A stretch of DNA of 29,882 nt from a bacterium (GCA_965233585.1 CBDDTI010000079.1:1-29882), one strand, 5' to 3'. Shown: positions 4,806 to 29,882, counted from the stretch's first letter. Notes: generated from the sequence alone by a model not told the origin. Translations and numbers: made by a program.

Positions 4806-7800
4806 CCTTGAGTAACTCGATCTCAATCAAAGGTTTCCGAATGAATCGTATTCCTGATGAAAGAGGATTTAGTCACAGAACAATCACCAAACAATCACAA
4901 GATAATTGTAAGAATTATGAAAGAATTCTGAAAGTCAATTCCTTCTGTTGAGACACGTCTTTCCTGTTTCCTGTCCGTGAATCAACTCATTTATTTACAC
5001 TACAATTACACAGGAAATCAGAGACCATGTGGTCAAACAGGAATTCCCAATATCAGTGTGAGAAGAATGTTAAATCCATTATGTACAACAGAAATGAAGA
5101 GGGAATTCCTGCTTCAGTGTAAGAAGGGTAATCAATTATGTACAACGGAAATGGAAAGAAAATAGAATGGTGGTGGCGTGAGCTAGGGTTGCCACGTGAG
5201 TTAGTGTTGCCAGAGTCTTGGGCTTTTCGGTTCACTAGACAGTGCCAACCCGCATTAATTGTCTCCGTAGTCAAGATCAGCCTAGTCTTCACACCTCCAC
5301 ATGGTGTTCCTCACCTCAAATCCTCACCAAGGCTTTAACATGCTTCAACGAGTCTTCCTGGACAAGGATTTCCGTGATATCCAGGTTGGTTGATTACCTC
5401 GAATGCGGATTTCCTTGCCATTTTCCTTAAGGTCTTTCAGAATTTCCGCGAGTCCAGGTTGGTTGAGTATCTGGAACTGTACAGCGCAACGATTCCTGGA
5501 CAAACCCAGCGGCACGAATTTCTACAAGGACAACAACCGTTGGTGCCACAAGGGCTGGTGTACCCAAGGAACGTCTGTGGGCTCTCCGGGCAACCGACAG
5601 AAATGAGTTGGAGTCACTCCGAGAACATCTTGAGGCTGCGCAGGAAGGATGTGCCGATGTGCTCGCTTCACCACCCCTAGTCATTGCAGCTCCATTCCCC
5701 ACGTTGCACCGGAGCCTCCGTGTTACTGCGGAGCGACCCAGAGACCGTCGCCTCCCCCGGAAACAACCACGCACGCGGAGTTCGACACTCTCCCTCAAGA
5801 CGCCAAGAGTGAGTGGCTAGTTGCACAGTCACGGCTCAATTCCTCACCGCTGTTGCAAAGAGACTCTCGCCTCCGCTACGTTATCCGGACCCTCTTCCGG
5901 TTCACCGACGTGATTTCAATCGGGGGCTACGGTTAAGACTAACCTCATCTCTCACACTATCACTGTCAACCCAGGCACCACCCCGATCAAGACGAAACAT
6001 CGGCCGCTGAATCCTGTGAGGGAGGAATTCTTACGGCAACCAATCGACCAACGGATGGAACAACGGGTGATGGAAGAAGCGGACTCGCTGTGGTCTTTTC
6101 CGCTCATTCCAGTCCCAAAGAAGAACAGCCGAGAAGTCCGTTGGCTCATCAACTACCGGTGATGGGACACCATCACCGAGAAAGATGCCGTCCCCTTGTC
6201 TAACATCGCAGACAATCTATCTCGTCTCACCGGCAGCCGCGTCATCTCTGCCCTCGACGGGGCCGGAGCCTTCCATGATCTGCCCTCCTCTGAGGTCCTG
6301 TGCTACCTGGACAACACCGCCTCCCACTCTGAGGATGCCTGGGGCCATCTTTGGATCCTACTCAAGGTCTTAGCGGCCTCCCGCGCCAAGGGTCTCCTGA
6401 CTTCCCCGGAGAAGGCTCAGTTGCTCCGGGATCACATCAAGTCCCTAGGACAAGAGGTCAGCGCCCACGGGACCAGCATCCCCCAGGAATACACCTCCGT
6501 CCTCAAGGACTGGCCGATCCCGGGACACCCGGAAGACCTTGCTAGCCTTCCTGGGCAAATGCGGATACTACCGGCGATTCATCGCGGATTATGCCACCAT
6601 TTCCGCGCCCCTGATCCAATATACCCAGAAGGACCAACCAGAGGAAATTCCATGCCTCTGGCAGGATGCGGCTGCTGTCAAGGCCTTCCAGGCTATGAAA
6701 CAGAAACTGATGTCCGCTCCCATCCTGGCCTGTCCACAGTTTCATGGGAAGCCATTCATCATTGACACGGATTTCAGCGTCGACCCAGGAGCCATCGGTG
6801 GTGTTCTCTCCCAGGAACAAGAGGGACAAGAACGGGTGATTGCCTGCTGCGCCAGACGCCTCTTGCCGCGGAAACGGAACTATGCCTCTACCAAAGGAGA
6901 GCTCTTGGCGGTAATCTTCTTCCTGCAGTACTATAAATATTACCTCTTACACCGGCTGTTTATTTTATGTACTGATAACCAGGCACTCACCTGGATTAGA
7001 TCTTTAGAGTCCCCAACAGGAATGATTCTTCGCTGGCTGGCAATTTTAGCCAGCTTCGACTTCACCGTCAAACACCGAAAGGGCACTCTCCTTGGAAATG
7101 CCGACTCCTTGTCCCGGACAACACACGCCGTGCTTCCGTCACCTGTTGAAGAGGAGATCTTAGTGAGTGATAAAGCCGCGGTAGTCGCAGTCCTACTAGC
7201 GCCTCCAGGATTCCCCACGGTGGAGATCAAGGGACACCAAGAGAGGGATGATTATCTTCACGAGGTTCAACAGTGGGAAGAAGGAGCCGCCTTCCGAAAT
7301 GGAGAAGCAGATGTAGTATTTTGACCAGAGGAACCTGCTTGCCTTCCTGCCCTCTTTGCACCAAGACCCTTCCTCTGGGCTGTGGAGCCTTCAGAGCCGG
7401 GAGGACGGGGTCCTCTGCGATCGCCTCTACGTTCCTCATGCCTTACGGCACCGGATTATGGAGGCTGCCCACCAAGTCCTGGGCCACGCCGGCACCAACT
7501 CAACATCCCACTTATGCCGAAAGAGAGCCTCCATGTTCCGTCTGGTTCCTGAGCTCCACGGGGTTCTACAACACTGCCGTTCCTGCCAGGTGAAGAGCCA
7601 GAAGGTACCAACACAGAAGGATGTTCACCGCCCGAGCATCCAAGCTGAAGGTCACCGGGCATACCCGGAAGGACCCCTTTTCAGGTTTGGAGTATGGATG
7701 TGCTAGGTCCCTTGCGCGCCAGTTCTGAAGGTCACCGGTACCTGCATACCCGGAAAGATGTCTTCAGCAAATGGTTCGAGGCCATACCCCTCAGCAACAC

Positions 7801-13400: not shown

Positions 13401-13528
13401 TTATCTTTTAGTGTTGGGTCAACACTTCAAGAAAATATTTACATGTTATGACAGCGCTATTTCCACACTTTAAGAAAATTTAAAAATCTAAAATCTTCCA
13501 AAAGTTTATGAGCGTGCATGTGTTGTAG

Positions 13529-13578
13529 AGAAATGTACCTACATCAGGCTCTTTCGAGCTTGATGTAGGCACATTTCT
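13529..13578. repeat. 23-bp-stem imperfect inverted repeat near the presumed element end
   Basis: AGAAATGTACCTACATCAGGCTC-TTTC-GAGCTTGATGTAGGCACATTTCT. Confidence 0.85.
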
Positions 13579-13702
13579 TCTCAAAACACTCTCAAAACAC
13601 CTTAAAACAGTCTAAAACGGGCTTTTAACCATCCGTTTACGCATGAAAACCATCTTGATGCGCTCTCAAACCACCTTGATGGCATCTACATTGAGTCTGT
13701 TG

Positions 13703-14050
13703 CAGGCTCAATCGAGCCTGTTTTCGTCTGTAATCGGCCTGCAACCGGCTTGTTTTCGTCTGCAATCGGCTTGCAACAGGCTCGATCGAGCCTGTAATCG
13801 GCCTGCAACCGGCTTGTTTTCGTCTGCAATCGGCTTGCAACAGGCTCAATCGAGCCTGTTGCAAGCCGATTACAGGCTCAATCGAGCCTGTTGCAAGCCG
13901 ATTACAGGCTCAATCGAGCCTGTTGCAAGCCGATTACAGGCTCAATCGAGCCTGTTGCAAGCCGATTACAGGCTCAATCGAGCCTGTTGCAAGCCGATTA
14001 CAGGCTCAATCGAGCCTGTTGCAAGCCGATTGCAGACGAAAACAAGCCGG
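13703..14050. repeat. Subterminal palindromic repeat array (32-bp unit x6 plus inverted flanks)
   Basis: CAGGCTCAATCGAGCCTGTTGCAAGCCGATTA at 13841, 13873, 13905, 13937, 13969 and 14001 (last copy ends ...GATTG). Extra CAGGCTC-N4-GAGCCTG cores at 13703 and 13777. 13809-13847 is the inverted copy of 14012-14050. Confidence 0.95.
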
Positions 14051-17461: not shown

Positions 17462-18544
17462 TTATTGTGACACATCAACTACATCTTTCTCATATGTCCA
17501 ACTAGGGTTTTTATACCCTTTCCATTTCACCAAAACCATTTTTTCACCTGTTTTTTTATCTTTTTTTGTTCGTAAAACCTTTTCAATCATAAATAATTCC
17601 GGCTCATTCACGGGAGTAAGTTCACTCTCATAAAAATTTCCTTCCAGAGTTTCATCCTGTTCTAAAGTTTCCAATTCATAAGTAGGTTTAGGCAAACGAG
17701 TAAAAATTGATTTTATTTTAAAAATTTCTTCCTTAAATTGTTGTGTAAAACCTCTGTCAAATTTTCCCTTCATTATGCTAATGCGCACGGTTTGACCAAT
17801 TTTGTATTTTGGTCTTTTTCTTTTAAACTTTGAATAATGCAATTCCTGTTTTCTTCTAATAAAATAAGTCCGACCGGGGAGCTCAGCTTCAGCGGGTGAC
17901 ATCCCAATCATACGATGTTTACGATGGTTGTAGGTATGAACAAGAAAAGGTAATGCGTCGATGTACCTATCTGTATTTTCGTGAGTCATGTATTTAAACA
18001 TCAGATTTTTTAAAGTTCGGTTAAATCTTTCCACAAAAGGGGCGTGCACAAAATTGTTGCTGTGTAATAGAAGAATGTTATTGTTTTTGCAGTAGGCTTG
18101 AAACAATTTATTCTTTATTTCTGCGCCTTTATCAGCTAAAATTCTACGAGGAAACTTTTTTGCTCTTTTCATAATAGACTCGAATCCCTCCATAAAAGTT
18201 TTTGCTGTTTTATTTTTTAAGGGTTCTACAAACGCGAATCGTGTAAAAATATCAATAGCTGTTAAAAGGTATCTATTCCCGTCATTTTCTTCGATCAAAT
18301 TTCCTAAATCTATAAGATCAATTTGAAATTGATATCTCTTATGATAAGCAAATGTCGGATTTCTAGGTTTAGGTAATTTTGGTTGTTTATGAAGTGTGTA
18401 AGAATCAGTTCCCTTTAACCATTCTTCAATTGTCGTTAAAGGAATTTTTTTTCCATAATAATAATAAATCAACGCAGGAGATGCAAAAGCTATTGGTGAG
18501 CCTGGTCTTGCATATTCTTTTAAAAAAATCTCTTTTGTTGTCAT
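17462..18544 (-). CDS. Retroviral-type (rve, DDE) integrase with C-terminal chromodomain
   Basis: FQIDLID, LTAIDIFTR, ILADKGAE, VERFNRTLK; chromodomain FMIEKVL..VLVKWKGY..SW. Confidence 0.97.
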   Translation of the reverse strand: MTTKEIFLKEYARPGSPIAFASPALIYYYYGKKIPLTTIEEWLKGTDSYTLHKQPKLPKPRNPTFAYHKRYQFQIDLIDLGNLIEENDGNRYLLTAIDIFTRFAFVEPLKNKTAKTFMEGFESIMKRAKKFPRRILADKGAEIKNKLFQAYCKNNNILLLHSNNFVHAPFVERFNRTLKNLMFKYMTHENTDRYIDALPFLVHTYNHRKHRMIGMSPAEAELPGRTYFIRRKQELHYSKFKRKRPKYKIGQTVRISIMKGKFDRGFTQQFKEEIFKIKSIFTRLPKPTYELETLEQDETLEGNFYESELTPVNEPELFMIEKVLRTKKDKKTGEKMVLVKWKGYKNPSWTYEKDVVDVSQ

Positions 18545-18960: not shown

Positions 18961-19680
18961 TTATTGCTCTAGACTTTTAAGACATCTGTATAAAGACATA
19001 ACACTGACGCCTAAAATACGAGCCGTATTTTTGACGCTCGGATATAGTGCTCTTGTTTCTTTTAAAAAGGCATAAGCACATGCTGCTAATAAAGTCCTAG
19101 GAGCAAAAGAACTATTTTCATTTTTATTTAGTTTCTCTTTTATAGTTGTCATCTCTTGATAATTTAACTGTAGAGGCTGTAAAAAATATTCTGCCATATC
19201 TTTTGCTTTTATAGAATTTTCTGTTTTAATTGTGTTGGTCGAATCTTGTCTGTATAATTTTATCCATCGCCATACCGTTTTTGGGCTAATACCAATTTCC
19301 TGACACAAGTGACTTATTGGGCGGGGAATTTTTTCCTCTATTAAACTTTGATACAATGCCATAGCAATTAAGCCTTTTGGATTAATTTTAATTTTTCCAT
19401 TTTTTTGATAATGCCACGCTGCTATTTCTGACCACAAATTAAAAATAGTGTTTGTAACATCATTATTTAAATGTAATTTATTACATAAATTTTTTAAAAT
19501 ATTTTTTTCCTTCTTTAAATGTTCGCTGTTTTGTTCAAATTCTTCATTTAAATTTTTTATTTTTTCCCATTTTGTTTCTAAATTTGGATCACAATATATT
19601 TTATCAATAACTAAACCACACTCGGTGCACACTACGTCTCCTTGTCTGGTGTCTTCTATTATATATTGATGAATGCACAT
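18961..19680 (-). CDS. TFIIB-like transcription initiation factor
   Basis: Zn ribbon CIH...EDTRQGDVVCTECGLVID, close to the TFIIB D..GD.VC.ECGLV motif. Two cyclin-fold-like repeats end in HTH-like segments (LCQEIGISPKTV, ARILGVSVMSL). Confidence 0.9.
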   Translation of the reverse strand: MCIHQYIIEDTRQGDVVCTECGLVIDKIYCDPNLETKWEKIKNLNEEFEQNSEHLKKEKNILKNLCNKLHLNNDVTNTIFNLWSEIAAWHYQKNGKIKINPKGLIAMALYQSLIEEKIPRPISHLCQEIGISPKTVWRWIKLYRQDSTNTIKTENSIKAKDMAEYFLQPLQLNYQEMTTIKEKLNKNENSSFAPRTLLAACAYAFLKETRALYPSVKNTARILGVSVMSLYRCLKSLEQ

Positions 19681-19786: not shown

Positions 19787-20329
19787 TTATTCAGTTTTAT
19801 ATTTTTTCAGCAATTCAGAAATAATTTTTATTCCTTGTGTAGCGTCTTTTTCGCAGGAAGCTCCAATTATTACTATTTTTCCAGACGAAAATATTAAAGC
19901 AGAACACTTTTTTAATGTTAAAAACATTCCAGGAAATTTCTCAGAGTCGTATCTCTTTTGGATAATTTCAAAATCTACATTTAATTTCAAATTGTTGTAA
20001 AATGTTAATAAATTGATTTTTGATGACATATGACACAAACAAGTCATGTTTTCTATTTTAAACTTTTCAGTAATAAATTTACTACTTATAACAAGTTTTA
20101 ATTCGTCTAATGCTTTTGGTATATGCTCTGTGGAAGGGATTTTAGTAATATTTACGTGGAAATTTCGATTTTGCTTTGTTTTAGTAAACACAATAAAAGA
20201 ATATTTTTTTTTAACAACAGTAAAATTATTATAATGTTTTAGTACATTATCGGTATTAAAAGAAATTTTGTCACTGTCGATGAGACGAATTTTGCAACTG
20301 ATTTTAACATTGCTGACCATCACTTCCAT
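19787..20329 (-). CDS. TATA-binding protein-like (180 aa from ATG 20329)
   Basis: Two-repeat layout VSNV.../IENM...; YDSEKFPGM and ALIFSSGKIVIIGA match the TBP YEPE.FPGL and LIF.SGK.V.TGA motifs. Confidence 0.92.
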   Translation of the reverse strand: MEVMVSNVKISCKIRLIDSDKISFNTDNVLKHYNNFTVVKKKYSFIVFTKTKQNRNFHVNITKIPSTEHIPKALDELKLVISSKFITEKFKIENMTCLCHMSSKINLLTFYNNLKLNVDFEIIQKRYDSEKFPGMFLTLKKCSALIFSSGKIVIIGASCEKDATQGIKIISELLKKYKTE

Positions 20330-20335
20330 CTTGGT

Positions 20336-21685
20336 ATGGGCTTGCCCGACAAAAGCGGAATTGCTGGATTGGCCGTGGAACAAAACGATGGCACAGAAAG
20401 TGGTTTAGCGCTTCACGCACCCTTAGAAGTGGAAACGGGTCTATTGGAAGGGGCTCACGTTATTTACAATAGCGTGGCTTCTATCACCAACACCGGTCCG
20501 GTAGAATTTCTTGTTCCTCGCGACAACGAGTGTTCTTTTATACTGAGTCAAACCAGACTCAGTGGGCATTTTGTAGTGACAAATGATGACGGTGGCTTTG
20601 TCACGGACGCAAGTAAAACCGCGTTGGTAAATCATTTTGCTGCTTGTTTATTCAGTCAAGTAGAAGTGTATTTGAACGGTGTTCAAGTAGCTGATTTAAG
20701 TTCGGCGGTCACCTACCCCTGGAGAATGTTTTTACAATCATATTTAAGTTACAATATTGACGTAAAAGACACTTATCTGGCTGCCGAAGGATATTATCCC
20801 GAAACTATAGACGAAGTTACCACCACCAAAATTACCGAAGAAGTTTCCTCTCATTCTTTGAAAAAAAGAAAGAATTTGATTTTAAACGGGAAAAAAGTAT
20901 TTTTTAACTCGCGTATAGCTGTTGATCTGTTTGACACTGATCGATTTTTACCACCAAATGTGGATATCAAGATAAAATTGGTTAGATCGGCTGAAACATT
21001 TGGTTTGCTTCAAGATCCTGCAGCAGCAAAACCTTTCAAAATTGTGTTGAAAGATGTCAAATTGCATATGAGAAAAGTGTTGCCCACGTTGATAATACGA
21101 GAAAGTTTCAAAAACAAACTTTTAAAAGAACCGTGCTACCTGCCTTTCAGCTCTACACGTTTAAGACATTACGTTATTCCTCAAGGCGTGTCGTCTTTTA
21201 ACATCGCTAATATTGCTAATGGAACATTACCCAAACAAGTGTTTTTTGTGATGGTTCACAATCAGGCTATGTCGCATGCTCCCGACAAAAATCCTTTTAA
21301 TTTTCAACACTTTAATCTTTCCTCGTTTAATTTAAAAAAGAACGGGCAATGCGTATTTCCCAAACCTTTTCAACCTAACATAGAGGAAGGGGACGTTGTT
21401 GACTTATATCGGCATTTATACGACAGTATAGGCATTTCGCACGGCAATCAGTCCATTGGCTTGACGTATGATGCTTTTATAAATGGAAGATTTTTTCTGG
21501 CGGCCGACTTGACACCAGATCAATGTAATTCGTACCACACACATCCAGAAAATTATGGAAATTTAGATTTAGAGTTGGCTTTTTCCCAAATCACTCCCCA
21601 TCCAATATACGTTCTGGCCTTATCTATTTTTAACTCCGGTATTAAAATAGATCAATTTCAACAAGTCATAAAAGGAACCAATTAA
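20336..21685 (+). CDS. Major capsid protein (double jelly-roll, Polinton type)
   Basis: 449 aa; GPVEFLVP, LFSQVEVYLNG, FLPPNVDIKIKL, LPKQVFFVMV, NPFNFQHFNL, DLTPD, GNLDLELAF are characteristic Polinton MCP motifs. Confidence 0.93.
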   Translation: MGLPDKSGIAGLAVEQNDGTESGLALHAPLEVETGLLEGAHVIYNSVASITNTGPVEFLVPRDNECSFILSQTRLSGHFVVTNDDGGFVTDASKTALVNHFAACLFSQVEVYLNGVQVADLSSAVTYPWRMFLQSYLSYNIDVKDTYLAAEGYYPETIDEVTTTKITEEVSSHSLKKRKNLILNGKKVFFNSRIAVDLFDTDRFLPPNVDIKIKLVRSAETFGLLQDPAAAKPFKIVLKDVKLHMRKVLPTLIIRESFKNKLLKEPCYLPFSSTRLRHYVIPQGVSSFNIANIANGTLPKQVFFVMVHNQAMSHAPDKNPFNFQHFNLSSFNLKKNGQCVFPKPFQPNIEEGDVVDLYRHLYDSIGISHGNQSIGLTYDAFINGRFFLAADLTPDQCNSYHTHPENYGNLDLELAFSQITPHPIYVLALSIFNSGIKIDQFQQVIKGTN

Positions 21686-22184: not shown

Positions 22185-23645
22185 TCATAACTTTGGATAT
22201 TTTCCTGAAAAAAGTTTTTTAACAGAATCTACTTTAGCTTCTGATTTAGACATTTTTCTTGTTTTTGATCTGGTTTTTGCAGGAGACACACCAGCTTCAA
22301 TAGGGTCCCTGTTTATTGGGCTTTTAGATTGTGACATTTTCATTGATTTTGATCTGGTTTTGGTTTGTGCAGGAGTCATGTCAGCATCAGTGGAATTTCT
22401 TTTTGTTGCACCCTTCGATTTAGCTTTTCCGGCTGAAAATCGTATTTTAACAGGTGTGAGTGGAAATGAAGGAGAAGAGCTTCCAATTCCTCTTAATCTT
22501 CTTTTTCGAGGGGTAGAGGTCATTCCAAAAATTTTATCTTGATTTCTTACAGACAATTCTTTATAATGATCTTTCATCATATGTTTGGCAAATTGTGGAA
22601 TGCCGACATATTGCTTCCCGCAATTGGGAAAGGGACAAACTATTTTGCCAGCCGCATTCTTTTCTTTCACTGCTTTTGCAATAGGTGTATTTCGCCAATT
22701 TAACACAACTGGAGATTTTATTGTGGAAAGTGCGTATGAGTAATCCGTTTCATTTGAGCTGTTTCTTCTAGCGTAAGGGCTGGAAATCATTCCTTTAATG
22801 GTCTTTTTGTCTTTCAAAGCTATATCTTTAGGATGATCTTTTAGCAAATGTTTGCCTAATTGCCCTTCATCAACATATTGCTTCCAACAATCAGGAACTG
22901 GACAAACTAATTTGCCTTTTGAATTTCTTTTCGTCATCGCTTCTAAAACAGGTGTTTCTCGCCATTCTTCTCGTTTGGTAGTAACAGGAGTTGAATAAGC
23001 TGATTCGTTCGGACTTTTTGTTTTTTCAGGACTAAGAGATTTTTCTGCAACAAATTCTCTTTCAATAATGGGGGTACTAGGTAAATTATTTTCTTCTTGT
23101 TGGGGAATTTCAGTGGGTGTTCTGTAAAGAGATACGTCCGTGAGATCCATATTGGTATCAATTCGAGCAGGTGTTAGTGCATTTGGTATTTCTTCTCGTT
23201 GCGTTATTTGGGTGGATGGTGATCTTAAAACCGGGTGGTAAGCGCGGTCAATACTGCTACCTTTTTGGGTAACTCGACCAGGAGACATTACATTCTGTAT
23301 TTCTTCTCGTTGAGGAATTTGAGTGGATGGTGATCTCGAAAGAGATTGGTAAGTACGACCCATGCTATCAGATTGGGCAATTGATGTGACATTCGGTAAT
23401 TTATCAGACCCAAAACGAAGTAATTTATCCCCAGTTTGGATTATTTTCTGTCTGTCTTGTAGATTTTTAAATTTAATGGCATTTTCAATATAGTTGGTTG
23501 TTTCCGGTTTTTCATTCATAGAAATAAGTTCCTTTTTTGATTCATCGTCTTCCGTATTTTTTATTAATGAATAATATAATCTTTTAGGTACTAAAAACAT
23601 GGAATACATTTCATCATGTGGTTTTATTTTTACTCCTGAGCTCAT
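22185..23645 (-). CDS. Protein with two C2H2 zinc fingers, S/T-P-rich repeats and a basic tail (486 aa)
   Basis: CPVPDC..QY....LGKHLLKDH and CPFPNC..QY....FAKHMMKDH; internal repeats RSPSTQI.QREEI. Confidence 0.8.
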   Translation of the reverse strand: MSSGVKIKPHDEMYSMFLVPKRLYYSLIKNTEDDESKKELISMNEKPETTNYIENAIKFKNLQDRQKIIQTGDKLLRFGSDKLPNVTSIAQSDSMGRTYQSLSRSPSTQIPQREEIQNVMSPGRVTQKGSSIDRAYHPVLRSPSTQITQREEIPNALTPARIDTNMDLTDVSLYRTPTEIPQQEENNLPSTPIIEREFVAEKSLSPEKTKSPNESAYSTPVTTKREEWRETPVLEAMTKRNSKGKLVCPVPDCWKQYVDEGQLGKHLLKDHPKDIALKDKKTIKGMISSPYARRNSSNETDYSYALSTIKSPVVLNWRNTPIAKAVKEKNAAGKIVCPFPNCGKQYVGIPQFAKHMMKDHYKELSVRNQDKIFGMTSTPRKRRLRGIGSSSPSFPLTPVKIRFSAGKAKSKGATKRNSTDADMTPAQTKTRSKSMKMSQSKSPINRDPIEAGVSPAKTRSKTRKMSKSEAKVDSVKKLFSGKYPKL

Positions 23646-24070: not shown

Positions 24071-24766
24071 TTAAACGGTAACGTAAGCTTTCATCAGTCC
24101 CTCGTACGGAAAAATGTTGCTTCGAATTCTGACTTTATCGTCTTGTTGTTGATGGAAATCTAGAAGGAGATATCCGTGACTTCGACCGTTAACAGCTTCC
24201 CTGTATGCTTTATTTAAAATTCCGACTCGTCCGGGGAAAATTTGTTTAGCCAAATGCGCAACCGCACTTCTGTCCCGAGGATTGTTAAAAAGAACCATAT
24301 ACTGTGTGTTTATGCTTAATGTCCGCAAATCACCTTTTTTATCAAATAAATTTTGACACAGAAAAACGGTGAAACAATTGTAGTGATGAGTCAAAACCGT
24401 AAAAAAATGTTTTAATATTTGTCCAACATCGTCTAAATAATCATCAAAAACAACTAATTTGGGCATTTTTCTTGGATATGATTCCAAAATATCTTTTAGT
24501 TCTTCAATCGAATTTGGAATACTTTTAAATTTACGAAATGTTGGAAAGCGAGAGTTTGAACGTTTGTCTCGATTCATATCATCTTCCATGTATTCATAAG
24601 CTTTTTGTGGTTCTTTGTAGAACAACAACATTGTTTCTGGTGGAGTTGCAAAATATTCATGCCTACCAACCACTAAATGTTTAAGCCACGTTGTTTTTCC
24701 ACTCGATGTTGGGCCAACAATTAACATGTTGGAAGGAATACTGAACCTTAAATCAAAACCATCCAT
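24071..24766 (-). CDS. FtsK/A32-like genome packaging ATPase
   Basis: Walker A GPTSSGKTT, Walker B LVVFDD, FLCQN, RTLSIN..Y, HGYLLLD. Confidence 0.96.
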   Translation of the reverse strand: MDGFDLRFSIPSNMLIVGPTSSGKTTWLKHLVVGRHEYFATPPETMLLFYKEPQKAYEYMEDDMNRDKRSNSRFPTFRKFKSIPNSIEELKDILESYPRKMPKLVVFDDYLDDVGQILKHFFTVLTHHYNCFTVFLCQNLFDKKGDLRTLSINTQYMVLFNNPRDRSAVAHLAKQIFPGRVGILNKAYREAVNGRSHGYLLLDFHQQQDDKVRIRSNIFPYEGLMKAYVTV

Positions 24767-24829
24767 TTTGCTAGTTTTTGAAAAATATTTAAAAATTTTT
24801 TCTTAAATAAAAGTAACAATATGTTTTAT

Positions 24830-27800
24830 TTATTTACAAATAGGGCATTTAGATGATTTGTTGTTGACAATAAGACAATTTCCTAGTGATAAAGTGTGAT
24901 ATCCGCAATTCAAAATGTGTCTTTTGGAATCCATTGCTGATAACGCAATCTTTCTTTGAAAACATGTCCGAATTTTATGATTCTTTGATCTTAAGTTTTT
25001 GAAAGATTTGTAAATTAGAACAGTCCGTTTCAGACATTTTTTGTAATCGTTATAGGTTAATTGCTTTTTTATGCTAGATTTTTTTAAACCTTTGCAAATT
25101 TTCTTTTCTTCTGTTTTGTTTTTGTCTGAAAAATCAGTAATTTTCATAGAATAACATTTTGGACGTAAGCCTATAAAGTGAGTAATAGCTGCTCTGCCTT
25201 TTAGTTCGTCTTTGAAATAAAAAAGCTGATTGGCTCTACTGTCATCGAAAAGAGGATGTTGTTTGGGGTACTTTGAAAAATCAAATATGTGCTCCAATTT
25301 TTTCATTTCCCTTTCCAAGTTGTTGCATCTTACTTTTAAAAGAAAAGAATCCGTGTCTGAGAAACATAAAGACACATTTTCTTCGCCAAAATGTTGTTGA
25401 ATCGTGTCATAATACGATCTGTACATAAACAACTTGGACAATTCCAAAATAGAAAATCCAACAGCTAAAGGCTTCCTGAGCTCTATTATTGCCGGCTTCT
25501 TGTTGACAGCCACCAAGTTTTCATTGATGATTTGAAAACTGTTGATGTGTTGACCAAGACTGGCTTTCCTTAAGCTCTGTTCATCACCACAAAGGACCAC
25601 TTCAGAGTAATTTCGAACATTTTCTGAAATGCAGAATAAGATTTATTTAATAAAGAAAATTGATTATGTGCGCAATCACCTCAGCTAACTAGCCGTCCCA
25701 TATCACATTTCATTTTCCTCTGTAATTAGCAATGTACTATAATTTACTTCAATTTGAAATCATTCCTTTTTTAAAGCCCGACATAAACGGACATCAAAAA
25801 TTCCAACAAAATAAACACTAAGTCAAAATGGATAAAAAAGATCAGGAAAAGAGCAAAGCTTTTTGGTTAAAAGTAATAAAATCAGCCCAGGAGGAGGCAA
25901 CTTCAAGTCCGACTTCTGGCAGTAGCTCTACCGGGGCTGCGGCTGGGGGAGCATGGTCATCTACTAAAACTGAGGGAGCATGGTCATCTTCTGGGGCTGC
26001 GGGTGGAGGATCATGGGCATCTTCCGAGCGTCCCGTGGCACCTGCTTGGCCATCACGGACTCCGTACAAGTCCGTCCCACAAAAATCAGGGTCGGAGTCG
26101 TGGAAGAGCGCATCTACTGCCGGGGTCGGGGGCGGAGGAGCATGGTCATCCACTAAAACCGGAGGAGCATGGTCATCTTCTGCGGCCTTGGGTGGGGAAT
26201 CATGGTCATCTTCCGAACGTCCCGTGGCACCTGCTTGGCCATCACGGACCCCGTACAAGTCCGTCCCACAAAAATCAGAGCGGGAGTCGTGGAAGAGGCA
26301 TCTACTGTCGGAGCCGGGAGTGGGGGAGCATGGTCATCCACTAAAACTGGAGGAGCATGGTCATCTTCTGGGGCTGTGGGCGGAGGAGCATGGTCATCTG
26401 CTAAAAATGAGGGGGCATGGTCATCCACTAAAACTGCGGGAGCATGGTCATCTTCTGCGGCCTTGGGTGGGGGATCATGGGCATCTTCCGAACGTCCCGT
26501 GGCACCTGCTTGGCCATCACGGACCCCGTACAAGTCCGTCCCACAAAAATCAGGGTCGGAGTCGTGGAAGAGCGCATCTACTACCGGGGCTGGGGGCGGG
26601 GGAGCATGGTCATCTACTAAAACTGGAGGAGCATGGACATCTTCTGGGGCTGTGGGCGGAGGAGCATGGTCATCTGCTAAAACTGAGGGGGCATGGTCAT
26701 CTACTAAAACTGGAGGAGCATGGTCATCTTCTGCGGCTTTGGGTGGAGAATCATGGGCATCTTCCGAGCGACCCGTAGCACCTGCTTGGCCATCACGAAC
26801 CCCGTACAAATCCGTCCCACAAAGGTCGGAGTCAGAGTCACGAAAGCAGACCTCTCATCGCGTGTCATTTGATTTGTCTTCACAATCAACACAAAAATCT
26901 AAACCACAACCCTATACTCACGTGGAACCTTCACCAACACCAGAAGTGCGTCAAGTAACGGCATTTCCATCAGTGTGGTCTCCGTCTACAGCTCGAAAAG
27001 TTACAAAAAAAAATTAAAATTTAAATTTGATCATTTTTCTTTTTCTTTTTGATTACAAAATAAACACATCATTTTATAAAAATTGATTTTTCAAAAGTTT
27101 GCGTACTTGATTAATTCATTTTGCGAATTTTTAATTTAATATTGATTTAATATTATGAATATTTATGAGATAATTTGCTAATTAATATGTGAAGGTTTGG
27201 AGATTCATTTTCTAAAATTGACAAAACCATGCGGGAAAATTCAAAACAAATTTAGAGAAGGAAGAGGAGAAGGAGAAGGAAAAGGAAAATGGACAAGGTA
27301 AAGTTAGGAAGGATGAGGAGGGGGAAATACGAGGTGTTGAGGGCGAAATGGACGGAAGAGGAGGAGGAGGAGAAGTTCAAGCTGCTGCCGGACCCGCCAT
27401 TGAGCGAGACACCGCCGCGTCCACCACTGATGTGGGGCGGTGGCCGTTTTAGACGGCTTGCCAGAGGCTTGATCATGATGATCAGGACGGCCGCCGCCTC
27501 CGTCGCCGACTTTGTTGCCGGTCGTCCGGACGTCATCCCCACCGACGTCATCCCCGCCAACGTCATCCCCACCGACGTCAGCCCCGCCGACGTCATCCCC
27601 GCCGACGTCAGCCCCGCCAACGAAGCCGATGTTTCTGAAGATGACGATTTTGATGAGGCTAAGTGTGTGGTTGGTGCCGGCAGGACGTACTGCCGCAACT
27701 GTCGCCGGTACCACCACGCACTTGTGCCTCAAAATTAAAGAAAAATACAAAAAATGACCCCAAATTCGTTTGAGTATTTAACAAATTCATTTTTTACAGA

Positions 27801-29882
27801 AAAATGGACTGCGTCAAATTACGCTTTTGCGTCTTTTACAATCTCAACATCATTAAATTATCTTATCTCAAAACTTACCAATAAATTTTCCAAAAGTAGA
27901 GTTGGCAAAAAGTTTAAAAAGCCGGAGTTCAAAGTCATTGCGAGCATTTGATCGCAGCTTTGTGACCTTTTCGATGAACTCCTTCAAAAAAGCTTTTTGT
28001 CGAAACTTCATGACTCTTCTTATCTTCAGCAACTTCATGCCCTTTTTCAAGTAGTACTGCAGGTTTTCCAGATGCACCACGTACTTTTTTCGGTCATAAA
28101 AAGTGCTCAACAATTTCTTGCTCCGGTATCTTTTGTTCCTATAATCTCGAGGACAGTGATGTTTCAGTAAACGGCGATTGTAAGGAGATAGATGTTTAAA
28201 AGAAACCGTGTCTGTATACGGAGCCAGCGGAAATTGATCGTGTGCCTGAAAATGATATCATGTAACTTGTCAAAACAATAAATAACGTATCACAACAAAG
28301 ATCGGATTTACCTGGTGAAGATGAGAAGGATAATGCAAATCAACTTCGAACGCATATCCAGTATCGTCTTGCGAAGGAATGTTGATAATATCTTCGGCAG
28401 TCCATTTTTTAAATTCTGTTTTTGAAACCCATTGGAAATCAGAAACTGGTAATTTTAAAGTTTCCATACTCCCGTATAAGTTGTTGGCTGAAAAATTGTA
28501 CGGATCATAACAAAAATGATTTCATCAGATAATACAGTATAAAATTACCATCAATGTATAACAAGTGATCGCCGCTTTTTCTAGGATTGCTATTCCCTTT
28601 GGCATAACGCTGAGCGATAAAACTTTGCCCACCTCTGATACCCTTTGTAAAAAAACGCTCCATTTCAGGATCGGAATAGACATCTAATGATCCGAGGGGT
28701 TTGGAGGTTTCAGATTCGGATGTGAGCTTATTATCTGATTTAGCTTGTTCTGAATTTTGAAAGAACATAAGCATGACATCAAAACTCAAGCCAGGAATTC
28801 CTAATTTAGGTAGAATAAATTTAGTATTACGATACATCCAACAGTAAAGATTAAAGTTTACCTAGATAATAAACAGGATCCAATTGAAAATGTTCCATAA
28901 CCATTTTCCTGTACTGAAGAAATGCTTCACACAGCAAAACAACGTCTAAAGAACAATAGAGCATCATGTAATCCACCACATTCTTGCATTTGAACGATTT
29001 AAAGACTTCTTGAGCATGGGAATAATCCGCTTCCGTAATGTGTTCTTCGTTTAATTCAGAATAAAAAGAGTCTTTGGACGGAAGGTTTCGACTTTTCTTC
29101 ATCTCTTGTAAAGATTGGAAATGTTCGTAACAAAAAACGCCTTTTCTTTTTAAAAGTTTTAAAGCTTTTGATTTTTGACGAACAGGAATTTTTTTATATC
29201 TTTCCATTTGTTGTAAAATGGGAAAGGTAAAATTTGAGGTCTGATTCAAATCTTGAACAAGTGCATCTAGACTGCCAGAAATGTGCTCTAACGAATCTTG
29301 AATTTTAAATTTGCCCAATGTAAGAGTGCGAAACTTTTCACTGTTTTTTGCTAAGACTTTTACATTTTGCTTAAATTTGGAAACATTTAACTCTTCCACG
29401 ATTAAATGCAAATCGTATCTGAAACGCGTACATAATTTGTGTTAGTTTAATAAATAAACCCAATTAAGACTTCTTACCCTTGAGCGTTGTGGAAAAAAAT
29501 TGGTGTGTGAAAGGGGCCGGATCTCGTCAAGTTACACAGTGAATGAGCTGCGCCCATTATTTTCCCTGTCACGTGATCATGATCTAGAACTTTTCTGTAA
29601 TTTCTAGAGTACTTTTTGAATTGACCACCACAAATATGACAAACTTTTGCTTTTTGATACATTTGCCATTCTTGCGGACTAGATTGATTTTTAACAATAT
29701 GTCTGAATTTTTGTTTTCTTTCGTCAACAACTTTTTCATAGAAATGCATTCGATCCAAAAAATGTTTGGCTGCATCCTCTCCTACATATTCTTCTTGAAA
29801 AAATACCTCATCATTCGAATCCACAAAAAGCAAGCTATACCCCACTGGTCTATGCACGTTTATATCGTCACTGGTAGGAAAA
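24830..29882 (-). CDS. polB: Protein-primed family B DNA polymerase, spliced and 5'-partial. Exons: >29881-29478, 29418-28862, 28800-28549, 28487-28312, 28245-27879, 25623-24830
   Basis: Splicing at GT-AG sites gives one open frame of 849 aa in the window. It restores motifs across every junction: FHNAQG/YDLH (Exo II), YYLG/IPGLS, YID/ANNLYG (motif A), LHQ/AHDQFPLAP, KLFANSTFGKFI/ENVR (motif B). SDTDS (motif C) is in the last exon. Confidence 0.95.
25828..27017 (+). CDS. Gly/Ser/Trp-rich repeat protein (~396 aa after repairing a 1-bp deletion at ~26297), nested in the polB intron
   Basis: ATG in CAAAATG context. Four copies of a unit made of GGAWSS repeats plus SERPVAPAWPSRTPYKSVPQ. Unit 2 has AAGAGGCATC where units 1 and 3 have AAGAGCGCATC. 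Confidence 0.75.
27289..27738 (+). CDS. Hypothetical protein with DVIP(T/A)/DVSPA pentapeptide repeats and a Cys/His C-terminus, nested in the polB intron; start uncertain
   Basis: GC-rich island in AT-rich flanks; 15-bp tandem repeat at ~27529-27621; ends C..GRTYCRNCRRYHH. Confidence 0.5.
   Translation: MDKVKLGRMRRGKYEVLRAKWTEEEEEEKFKLLPDPPLSETPPRPPLMWGGGRFRRLARGLIMMIRTAAASVADFVAGRPDVIPTDVIPANVIPTDVSPADVIPADVSPANEADVSEDDDFDEAKCVVGAGRTYCRNCRRYHHALVPQN
28246..28311 (-). other. polB intron (66 bp)
   Basis: CAG|GTAAAT...TTTTCAG|GCA, phase 0. Confidence 0.9.
28488..28548 (-). other. polB intron (61 bp)
   Basis: G|GTAATT...TTTTTCAG|CC, phase 1; splits motif A. Confidence 0.92.
28801..28861 (-). 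other. polB intron (61 bp)
   Basis: G|GTAAAC...AATTAG|GA, phase 1. Confidence 0.85.
29419..29477 (-). other. polB intron (59 bp)
   Basis: GG|GTAAGA...TTTCAG|A, phase 2; splits the Exo II motif. Confidence 0.92.

Follow-up and report, generated by a model that had tools for sequence, protein, structure and literature searches.

A Polinton/Maverick polymerase gene with five conserved, probably spliceosomal introns, the largest of which holds antisense genes

Animal Polintons, or Mavericks (polintoviruses and adintovirus-like elements), are dense units of 15-20 kb that occur in many genomic copies and encode a protein-primed family B DNA polymerase (pPolB, the product of polB), an rve integrase, an A32/FtsK-like ATPase, an adenain-like protease and a double-jelly-roll-like capsid protein. 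The window analysed here, the whole 29,882-nucleotide (nt) contig C79 of assembly GCA_965233585.1 (CBDDTI010000079.1:1-29882), holds most of an integrated Polinton/Maverick element, eukaryotic and misbinned into a bacterial assembly, which resembles the animal elements in its polymerase, integrase, density and copy number and has candidate ATPase, protease and capsid genes. It differs from those elements in that its core replicative gene, polB, is split by five spliceosomal-type introns, in that it encodes proteins resembling the TATA-binding protein (TBP) and TFIIB, and in that it keeps genes inside an intron.

In nematode Mavericks (Widen et al., bioRxiv 10.1101/2022.07.12.499685), the core genes are described as intronless, and the cargo between the left terminal repeat and the integrase as GC-rich, fast-evolving and intron-bearing. 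The element studied here likewise has a GC-rich, fast-evolving accessory segment in an AT-rich background (intron 5 of polB), but its cargo lies antisense inside the polB intron, and it is polB, not the cargo, that has introns. In punuivirus, an endogenous giant virus of Chlamydomonas, introns occur in 61 of 506 genes and were missed by the first annotation (bioRxiv 10.64898/2026.10.09.758095). Punuivirus is similarly an integrated double-stranded DNA (dsDNA) virus, some of whose genes carry host-type GT-AG introns; however, it belongs to another phylum and host and its introns are confirmed by RNA sequencing, whereas in the present element one gene is affected and the support is comparative. 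Introners are reported within Polinton-like proviruses of dinoflagellates in a third study (PMC12166617), which provides a further case of intron-type sequences inside Polinton-like integrated elements. Introners, however, are multi-copy transposons, whereas the introns described here have no matches outside polB loci and their positions are conserved across diverged families; a test for introner-like elements was negative, as introns 1-4 match only polB loci of the same families and show no match among themselves. Two surveys of integrated Polinton-like viruses state that the genes are intronless, and prokaryote-style gene callers were used in them (PMC10120064; bioRxiv 10.1101/2022.05.02.489867).

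No Polinton polymerase split by conserved spliceosomal introns is described in the literature covered on Polinton and Maverick introns, which does not include the founding papers, and an earlier description may exist. Early Polinton descriptions may have drawn introns in some genes. An arrangement in which a polymerase-gene intron houses antisense genes was not found in the literature covered on these elements. New here are the antisense genes in intron 5, the occurrence of TBP- and TFIIB-like genes in the intron-bearing clade alone, and the intron-like breaks in 45 of 80 metagenomic loci. Adenoviruses are nuclear dsDNA viruses with a related protein-primed polymerase, which is encoded in E2B together with the terminal protein and expressed from host-spliced mRNA. 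In adenoviruses, short upstream exons are spliced onto a polymerase body that is itself intact; in the present gene the introns cut into the catalytic core, in or next to Exo II, motif A and motif B.

Copies of the element in the assembly are assigned to families A (that of the window), B, B2 and C, with D1, D2 and D4 as more distant families. In the window, polB lies on the minus strand as six open pieces separated by five GT-AG introns of 59, 61, 61, 66 and 2255 nt, in phases 2, 1, 1, 0 and 1, and the coordinates, lengths and phase consistency set out in an earlier note, made from the sequence alone, were reproduced. The spliced exons total 2547 nt, or 849 codons, and run without stops, as that note had also stated, up to the stop codon at 24830-24832. 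The parts of the gene are as follows, a slash marking the splice site within a motif:

29478-29882, minus strand: pPolB exon 1, 3' part (cut by the window end; frame 29881-29478), an open frame; the high-scoring segment pairs (HSPs) of homologues stop at 29477-29486
29419-29477, minus strand: intron 1, 59 nt, phase 2, GTAAGA...TTTCAG, inside Exo II (HNAQG/YD)
28862-29418, minus strand: pPolB exon 2, with a nonsynonymous rate (dN) of 0.066 and a synonymous rate (dS) of 0.82 against family B
28801-28861, minus strand: intron 2, 61 nt, phase 1, with GT in 26 of 27 and AG in 27 of 27 copies
28549-28800, minus strand: pPolB exon 3, supported by its open frame, homologue match and dN/dS
28488-28548, minus strand: intron 3, 61 nt, phase 1, inside motif A (YID/ANNLYG)
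28312-28487, minus strand: pPolB exon 4, supported by its open frame, homologue match and dN/dS
28246-28311, minus strand: intron 4, 66 nt (57-67 nt among copies), phase 0, containing in-frame stop codons
27879-28245, minus strand: pPolB exon 5, matching PF03175 (E=4.8e-06) and ending in motif B
25624-27878, minus strand: intron 5, 2255 nt, phase 1, GTAAGT...TTTCAG, GT-AG in 25 of 25 copies, with nested antisense genes
24830-25623, minus strand: pPolB exon 6, which contains motif C (DTDS) and closes with the stop codon at 24832-24830

All five donors read G/GTAA, and the acceptors are YAG, preceded by pyrimidine-rich 3' ends and reading TTTCAG in four of five cases. A GT and an AG at a fixed pair of sites are expected by chance in approximately 1/256 of cases in random sequence, and five exact, frame-restoring pairs are therefore not due to chance. 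Intron 1 interrupts HNxx(x)YD, intron 3 falls between YID and NNLYG, and intron 5 lies one residue past NSTFGKFI; these are locally conserved motifs that we take to be Exo II, motif A and motif B, respectively, and the earlier note had placed the three introns correctly. Retention of intron 1, 2, 3 or 5 shifts the frame and retention of intron 4 adds stop codons, each of which truncates the protein. Exon 1 contains an Endonuclease VII/HNH-like zinc module as well as the first half of Exo II, and a PF02945 match (E=6.7e-07) lies at 29516-29683 on the minus strand, just upstream of Exo II.

A sister copy shows the upstream remainder of exon 1 as a single 420-aa open reading frame (ORF), and the "at least five" introns of the earlier note become exactly five for the polymerase ORF in the window's family. 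Families A, B and C encode the N-terminal domain of pPolB as a separate ORF of 239-245 aa with C2H2-type zinc fingers, which matches residues 2-197 of full-length homologues (E=4e-11); in family D1 and in relative P0160 the N-terminal domain and the polymerase form a single ORF. On the sister copy, contig C523, the two ORFs that would lie beyond the window end are:

L018:6091-6810, minus strand: N-terminal-domain ORF
L018:4776-6038, minus strand: polymerase ORF

A sixth intron upstream of the window is ruled out: the stop codon of the N-terminal ORF is kept in nine of nine aligned copies, and a conserved ATG restarts the polymerase ORF approximately 55 nt later, with no conserved GT.

A library-wide search with exon 6 returned 7047 relatives, including uninterrupted proteins of 1231-1298 aa. 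When seven full-length homologues were compared with the window by tblastn, the alignments were collinear and broke only at the predicted sites, which for P0006 are residues 592/594, 783/782, 847/844 and 1025/1026. Each exon peptide was also aligned separately to up to 11 uninterrupted homologues and the residues between exon ends were counted, the expectation being one residue for a split codon and none for phase 0. The join of exons 1 and 2 has the expected one residue in 10 of 10 homologues; that of exons 2 and 3 has the expected count in five of 10, the remaining five alignments beginning too late to be informative; that of exons 3 and 4 has exactly one residue in eight of 10; that of exons 4 and 5 has zero in eight of 11; and that of exons 5 and 6 has one in 10 of 11, the residue being E in nine, which matches the split codon G/AA. 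In the metagenomic relative P0001/P0154, exons 5 and 6 are fused and show the predicted junction, GKFI-E-NVR. Discontinuity of protein alignments at the joins was one of the conditions under which the earlier note would have been refuted; the homologues are continuous, and the refutation fails. The protein collections searched with exon 2 for longer products yielded seven proteins, of which the closest was 42% identical, and nothing near-identical that would represent a spliced form, and no relative was found in the viral contigs scanned with exon 6.

Twenty-seven copies in the assembly align over exons 1-5 (13 of family A, two of C, one of B2 and 11 of B), with 94-100% identity to the window in family A and approximately 82% in family B. 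Introns 1-4 occupy identical places in all 27 copies, are 57-67 nt long (58-61 nt for intron 1), and have GT in 107 of 108 donors and AG in 108 of 108 acceptors; intron 5 is bounded by GT and AG in 25 of 25 copies. Between the window and the 11 family B copies, exon identity is 80-89% and the exons carry no indels other than 11 events of 3 nt, whereas the introns are 61-72% identical and contain 107 indel events, 81 of which are not multiples of three. Per-exon dN/dS is 0.04-0.12 with zero stops in six comparisons, in which dS reaches 0.86. Purifying selection on a gene with four frame-breaking inserts implies that the inserts must be removed before translation. In public contigs, all 12 of the listed one-base length differences lie within introns 3, 4 or 5. 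The copies, 96-99.6% identical, occupy different flanks, and intron-bearing elements have therefore kept inserting.

Deeper relatives were probed with the window's exon peptides, and two loci of family D1, seven of D2 and one of D4 were examined. At 50-73% amino-acid identity per exon, these families keep the intron sites, with introns of 55-96 nt. Family D1 has all five introns at homologous codons (64, 77, 70, 88 and 68 nt); in D2, exons 2 and 3 are fused exactly and intron 2 is missing while the other four are kept, and in the D4 locus exons 4 and 5 are fused exactly and intron 4 is missing. The simplest reading is that D2 and D4 represent two precise intron losses; precise loss is expected from recombination with spliced complementary DNA and would therefore lend indirect support to the exact junctions. 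The intron-bearing loci form one clade of 41 rows on an exon-6 tree of 51 rows (SH-like approximate likelihood-ratio test (SH-aLRT) support of 97), and D1, D2 and D4 group together (98). A second Polinton clade present in this assembly (10 rows, 97) lacks all five introns, and the ENA-derived P0001/P0154 lineage, with its fused exons 5 and 6, branches as sister to the rest. These introns are old, having been in place before at least six element families diverged, and the elements have multiplied with them. The nested pattern of shared, lost and enlarged introns constitutes a datable record of intron change within a mobile element.

Metagenome contigs were scanned with the exon-6 alignment and 80 loci (L023-L102) at 33-45% identity were kept, a sample that is biased by the search pattern and in which breaks were called automatically. 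At least one break relative to the uninterrupted P0006 is present in 48 of the 80, and 45 have a break with a frame-restoring GT-AG solution or an in-frame insert with stops. Break sites recur at P0006 residues of approximately 696, 847/848 (motif A), 1014-1018 (motif B) and 1087/1088. An intron of locus L053 agrees in place and phase with intron 1 of the window, and the metagenomic introns at motif A and motif B lie 5 nt and approximately ten codons from introns 3 and 5 of the window, respectively. Some metagenomic loci have three breaks, such as L068 (317, 82 and 192 nt). Judged from these alignments, interrupted polymerase genes are clearly not rare among these elements. A speculative and rather doubtful extension, prompted by such breaks in 45 of 80 relatives, is that polymerase genes with introns are the norm across a large, overlooked share of Polinton diversity. 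The premise of the earlier note that Polinton polB is normally one ORF holds for nematode Mavericks and for the second clade in the assembly, but these 45 relatives show intron-like breaks. Its expectation that ORF-based calling would misread the gene is borne out by relatives P0160 and P0154, which end or begin at intron-like boundaries and so reflect fragmentation; existing annotation pipelines would cut pPolB into six pieces, and the 45 metagenomic loci may be affected in the same way.

Intron 5 is 2254-2322 nt long in family A (1583 nt in one copy), 2018 nt in C, 941 nt in B2 and 1077-1351 nt in B, and 55-73 nt at the same site in the D families. Its GC content is 0.48-0.55 (0.48 in the window) versus 0.33-0.40 in the exons, it is rich in tandem repeats, all with periods that are multiples of three, and the intron 5 DNA of families A and B does not align. 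Two ORFs are nested in it, antisense to polB and compared below by the ratio of nonsynonymous to synonymous differences (pN/pS):

25828-27017, plus strand: nested antisense ORF1, a repeat-rich orphan, with pN/pS of 0.32 in frame versus 1.06 and 1.73 in the other frames
27289-27738, plus strand: nested antisense ORF2 (149 aa), in which a conserved Cys/His motif at the C terminus ends two residues before the stop

Of the 11 family A copies examined, seven have an ORF1 of 396 aa, and in the others it is longer or broken; in the window copy its frame shifts between approximately 26296 and 26402. Within the 12-Mb assembly the Cys/His motif of ORF2 is present at 26 loci, every one of which lies in polB intron 5 of family A, B or C. 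In family B the last 95 codons of ORF2 are open in 11 of 11 copies, the lengths differ only by multiples of three, and pN/pS over the C-terminal 95 codons is 0.18 versus 1.56 and 2.17 in the shifted frames. Among 11 family A copies, indels are multiples of three in 11 of 16 events within the two ORFs versus two of 17 elsewhere in the intron. Neither ORF matches a Pfam family or an Atlas entry. Intron 5 holds one or two conserved antisense ORFs under purifying selection. Since it is 55-73 nt long in the D families and ORF-bearing in A, B and C, a short intron was later colonised by orphan genes; intron 5 was originally short and became a site for extra genes in three families. The 2255-bp intron of the earlier note is better described as a short intron filled with conserved antisense genes.

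Nuclear transcription followed by splicing, which the earlier note had proposed, best accounts for the intron conservation, the selection, the sister families and the homologue joins, and polB is very probably a functional, normal nuclear-type split gene. Host RNA polymerase II would transcribe polB, and the major spliceosome would excise the five GT-AG introns to give one frame of approximately 1134 codons, in which the exonuclease and polymerase motifs are rejoined and from which the nested antisense ORFs are absent. A spliceosome-dependent polymerase gene could not be expressed in a cytoplasmic virus factory, and the clade would therefore have to express its replication enzyme from the nucleus, as in adenoviruses and unlike virophage-like relatives. 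The element is thus probably dependent on the host nucleus for its replication enzyme. Several observations weigh against this explanation. Of six sequencing-run holders listed from two studies, none is recorded as RNA, and the contigs of four public runs carry the introns and have no joint at the predicted splice sites. Some copies have decayed, with a stop in the exon-6 part in four of 51 rows, and one copy has GA at the intron 2 donor. As regards the nested genes, the pN/pS of ORF1 rests on repeats with multiple-of-three periods that could mimic codon periodicity, and the complementary frame that shares its third positions scores 0.35.

In each of families A, B, C, D1, D2 and D4, a single tblastn match runs from end to end of the integrase, the capsid candidate, the protease, the ATPase, TBP, TFIIB and each of two small ORFs; the other core genes are therefore unbroken across the clade, which extends to all six families what the earlier note had seen in the window. 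Three of these genes lie as follows:

18961-19680, minus strand: TFIIB-like gene, PF08271 (E=4.3e-08), zinc ribbon and weak cyclin repeat; unbroken
19787-20383, minus strand: TBP-like gene, PF00352 (E=1.3e-16); unbroken
24071-24766, minus strand: packaging ATPase-like gene, weak A32/FtsK matches, one full-length HSP in all families; unbroken

All five introns are in polB, which makes up approximately 25% of the coding length, and none are in the approximately 10.4 kb of other coding sequence; by length the chance of this is approximately 0.001, with the proviso that the events may not be independent. This concentration favours an extension of the splicing explanation, in which splicing or intron retention is a regulated switch that gates the polymerase and replication of the element, and the truncation caused by retention of any one of the five introns points the same way. 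Latency genes are the ones enriched in introns in the giant endogenous virus of Chlamydomonas (bioRxiv 10.64898/2026.10.09.758095). However, polB is simply the longest gene, and families D2 and D4 each lack one intron and the P0001 lineage lacks intron 5, so that no single intron is indispensable; regulation at this step, which the earlier note had put forward, is a tentative idea and on balance unlikely. The alternative raised there, intron gain restricted to an early gene, is likewise not supported.

The TBP- and TFIIB-like genes are present in all six intron-clade families, at 31-100% identity, and in none of seven contigs of the intronless-polB clade from the same assembly (tblastn, E<=1e-5, a threshold that distant versions could escape). 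On this search, they appear confined to the intron-bearing clade among the two clades compared. A literature search on Polintons and TATA-binding proteins listed no paper that is about Polintons, judged by title. A clade with host-like expression, combining its own TBP and TFIIB, a spliceosome-dependent polB and an intron that serves as a cargo bay, could conceivably possess a switch between quiescence and replication, a speculative proposal that we regard as doubtful. Antisense transcription of the cargo would collide with that of polB while sparing mature polB mRNA; the quiescent state would have the cargo on and the polymerase off, and the other state would be replicative.

That exons 1-5 and exon 6 are two genes flanking an inserted cassette, a split polymerase in which the 2255-nt segment is no intron, is very improbable. 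The segment does have conserved ORFs of its own, and the N-terminal domain is already a separate upstream ORF in the window's family; yet the segment begins with GT and ends with AG in all 25 copies, the sister families have a 55-73-nt intron at the same codon, the codon restored across it encodes the E present in nine of 11 homologues, and exon 6 lacks a start codon near its beginning. The chance that polB is a decaying pseudogene, its interruptions being insertions that are never removed, is slighter still, even though ORF calling splits the gene into six pieces and some copies have stops. A pseudogene would not be expected to show low dN/dS in each exon and exclusively codon-sized exon indels, nor to keep the same sites in 27 of 27 copies and in families at approximately 50-73% amino-acid identity, and the interruptions are canonical GT-AG segments with pyrimidine tracts; no intronless master copy with the pPolB sequence is present in the assembly. 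Least probable of all is removal at the DNA level, in the manner of ciliate internal eliminated sequences, or self-splicing, although the segments are short, AT-rich and precisely bounded: their boundaries are GT...AG and not TA...TA, the frames are open in the standard code, the contigs of the four runs show no intron-less DNA form (a weak point, as contigs drop rare forms), no group I or II Rfam match is found up to E=1 over 24700-29882, where the sole match is a chance microRNA, and the four short introns measure only 59-66 nt.

The element occupies the window from approximately 13.5-14 kb up to the window end and is AT-rich (GC 0.28-0.37) and densely packed; the flank is GC-richer. The left end, at approximately 13520-14035, is placed solely by where copies cease matching, and the right end lies beyond the window. 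The segment of approximately 500 nt at 13520-14035 is found again along the edges of further copies, in some cases twice and in both orientations, and may be a terminal repeat. The rve integrase is identified by PF00665 (E=2.5e-09, above the Pfam cut-off) together with a chromodomain at 17462-18544, and the protein-primed family B polymerase by the PF03175 match on exon 5, at 26.2 bits versus a cut-off of 25.8; the TBP and TFIIB zinc-ribbon matches likewise exceed their cut-offs. Pfam matches for the A32/FtsK-like ATPase and the adenain-like protease are weak and below the cut-offs. The candidate major capsid protein, of 449 aa, has no Pfam match; it resembles eukaryotic double-jelly-roll clusters of 428-457 aa and has an Atlas score of 0.98 to clusters with PF21738 in 15-24% of members, both of which serve as leads only. 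An ORF of 486 aa at 22185-23645 on the minus strand has weak C2H2 and FOXP coiled-coil matches and evolves far faster than its neighbours, with 65% identity in family C and, in family B, 36-44% across parts of its length only, and it was not found in the D families.

Assembly GCA_965233585.1 comprises 12 Mb in 747 contigs and is scored as a 92%-complete prokaryote, but it contains 63 pPolB loci on 50 contigs, belonging to at least two Polinton clades and approximately seven families, so that eukaryotic repeats are present as contamination and make up much of the bin. The nearest named polB relatives are nemertean, beetle and ant proteins and the capsid candidate resembles arthropod and echinoderm clusters, suggesting that the host is probably an animal. 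In the GC-rich flank, remnants of a long terminal repeat retrotransposon pol gene occupy 6196-7324 on the plus strand (RNase H, E=5e-24, and a weak reverse transcriptase match), and similar pieces are present on contigs C212 and C523. Contig C577 (L014-L016) carries consecutive actin fragments (Pfam positions 255-296, 321-355, 353-387 and 384-409), which lie 1.7-2 kb apart and may be a host gene with long introns.

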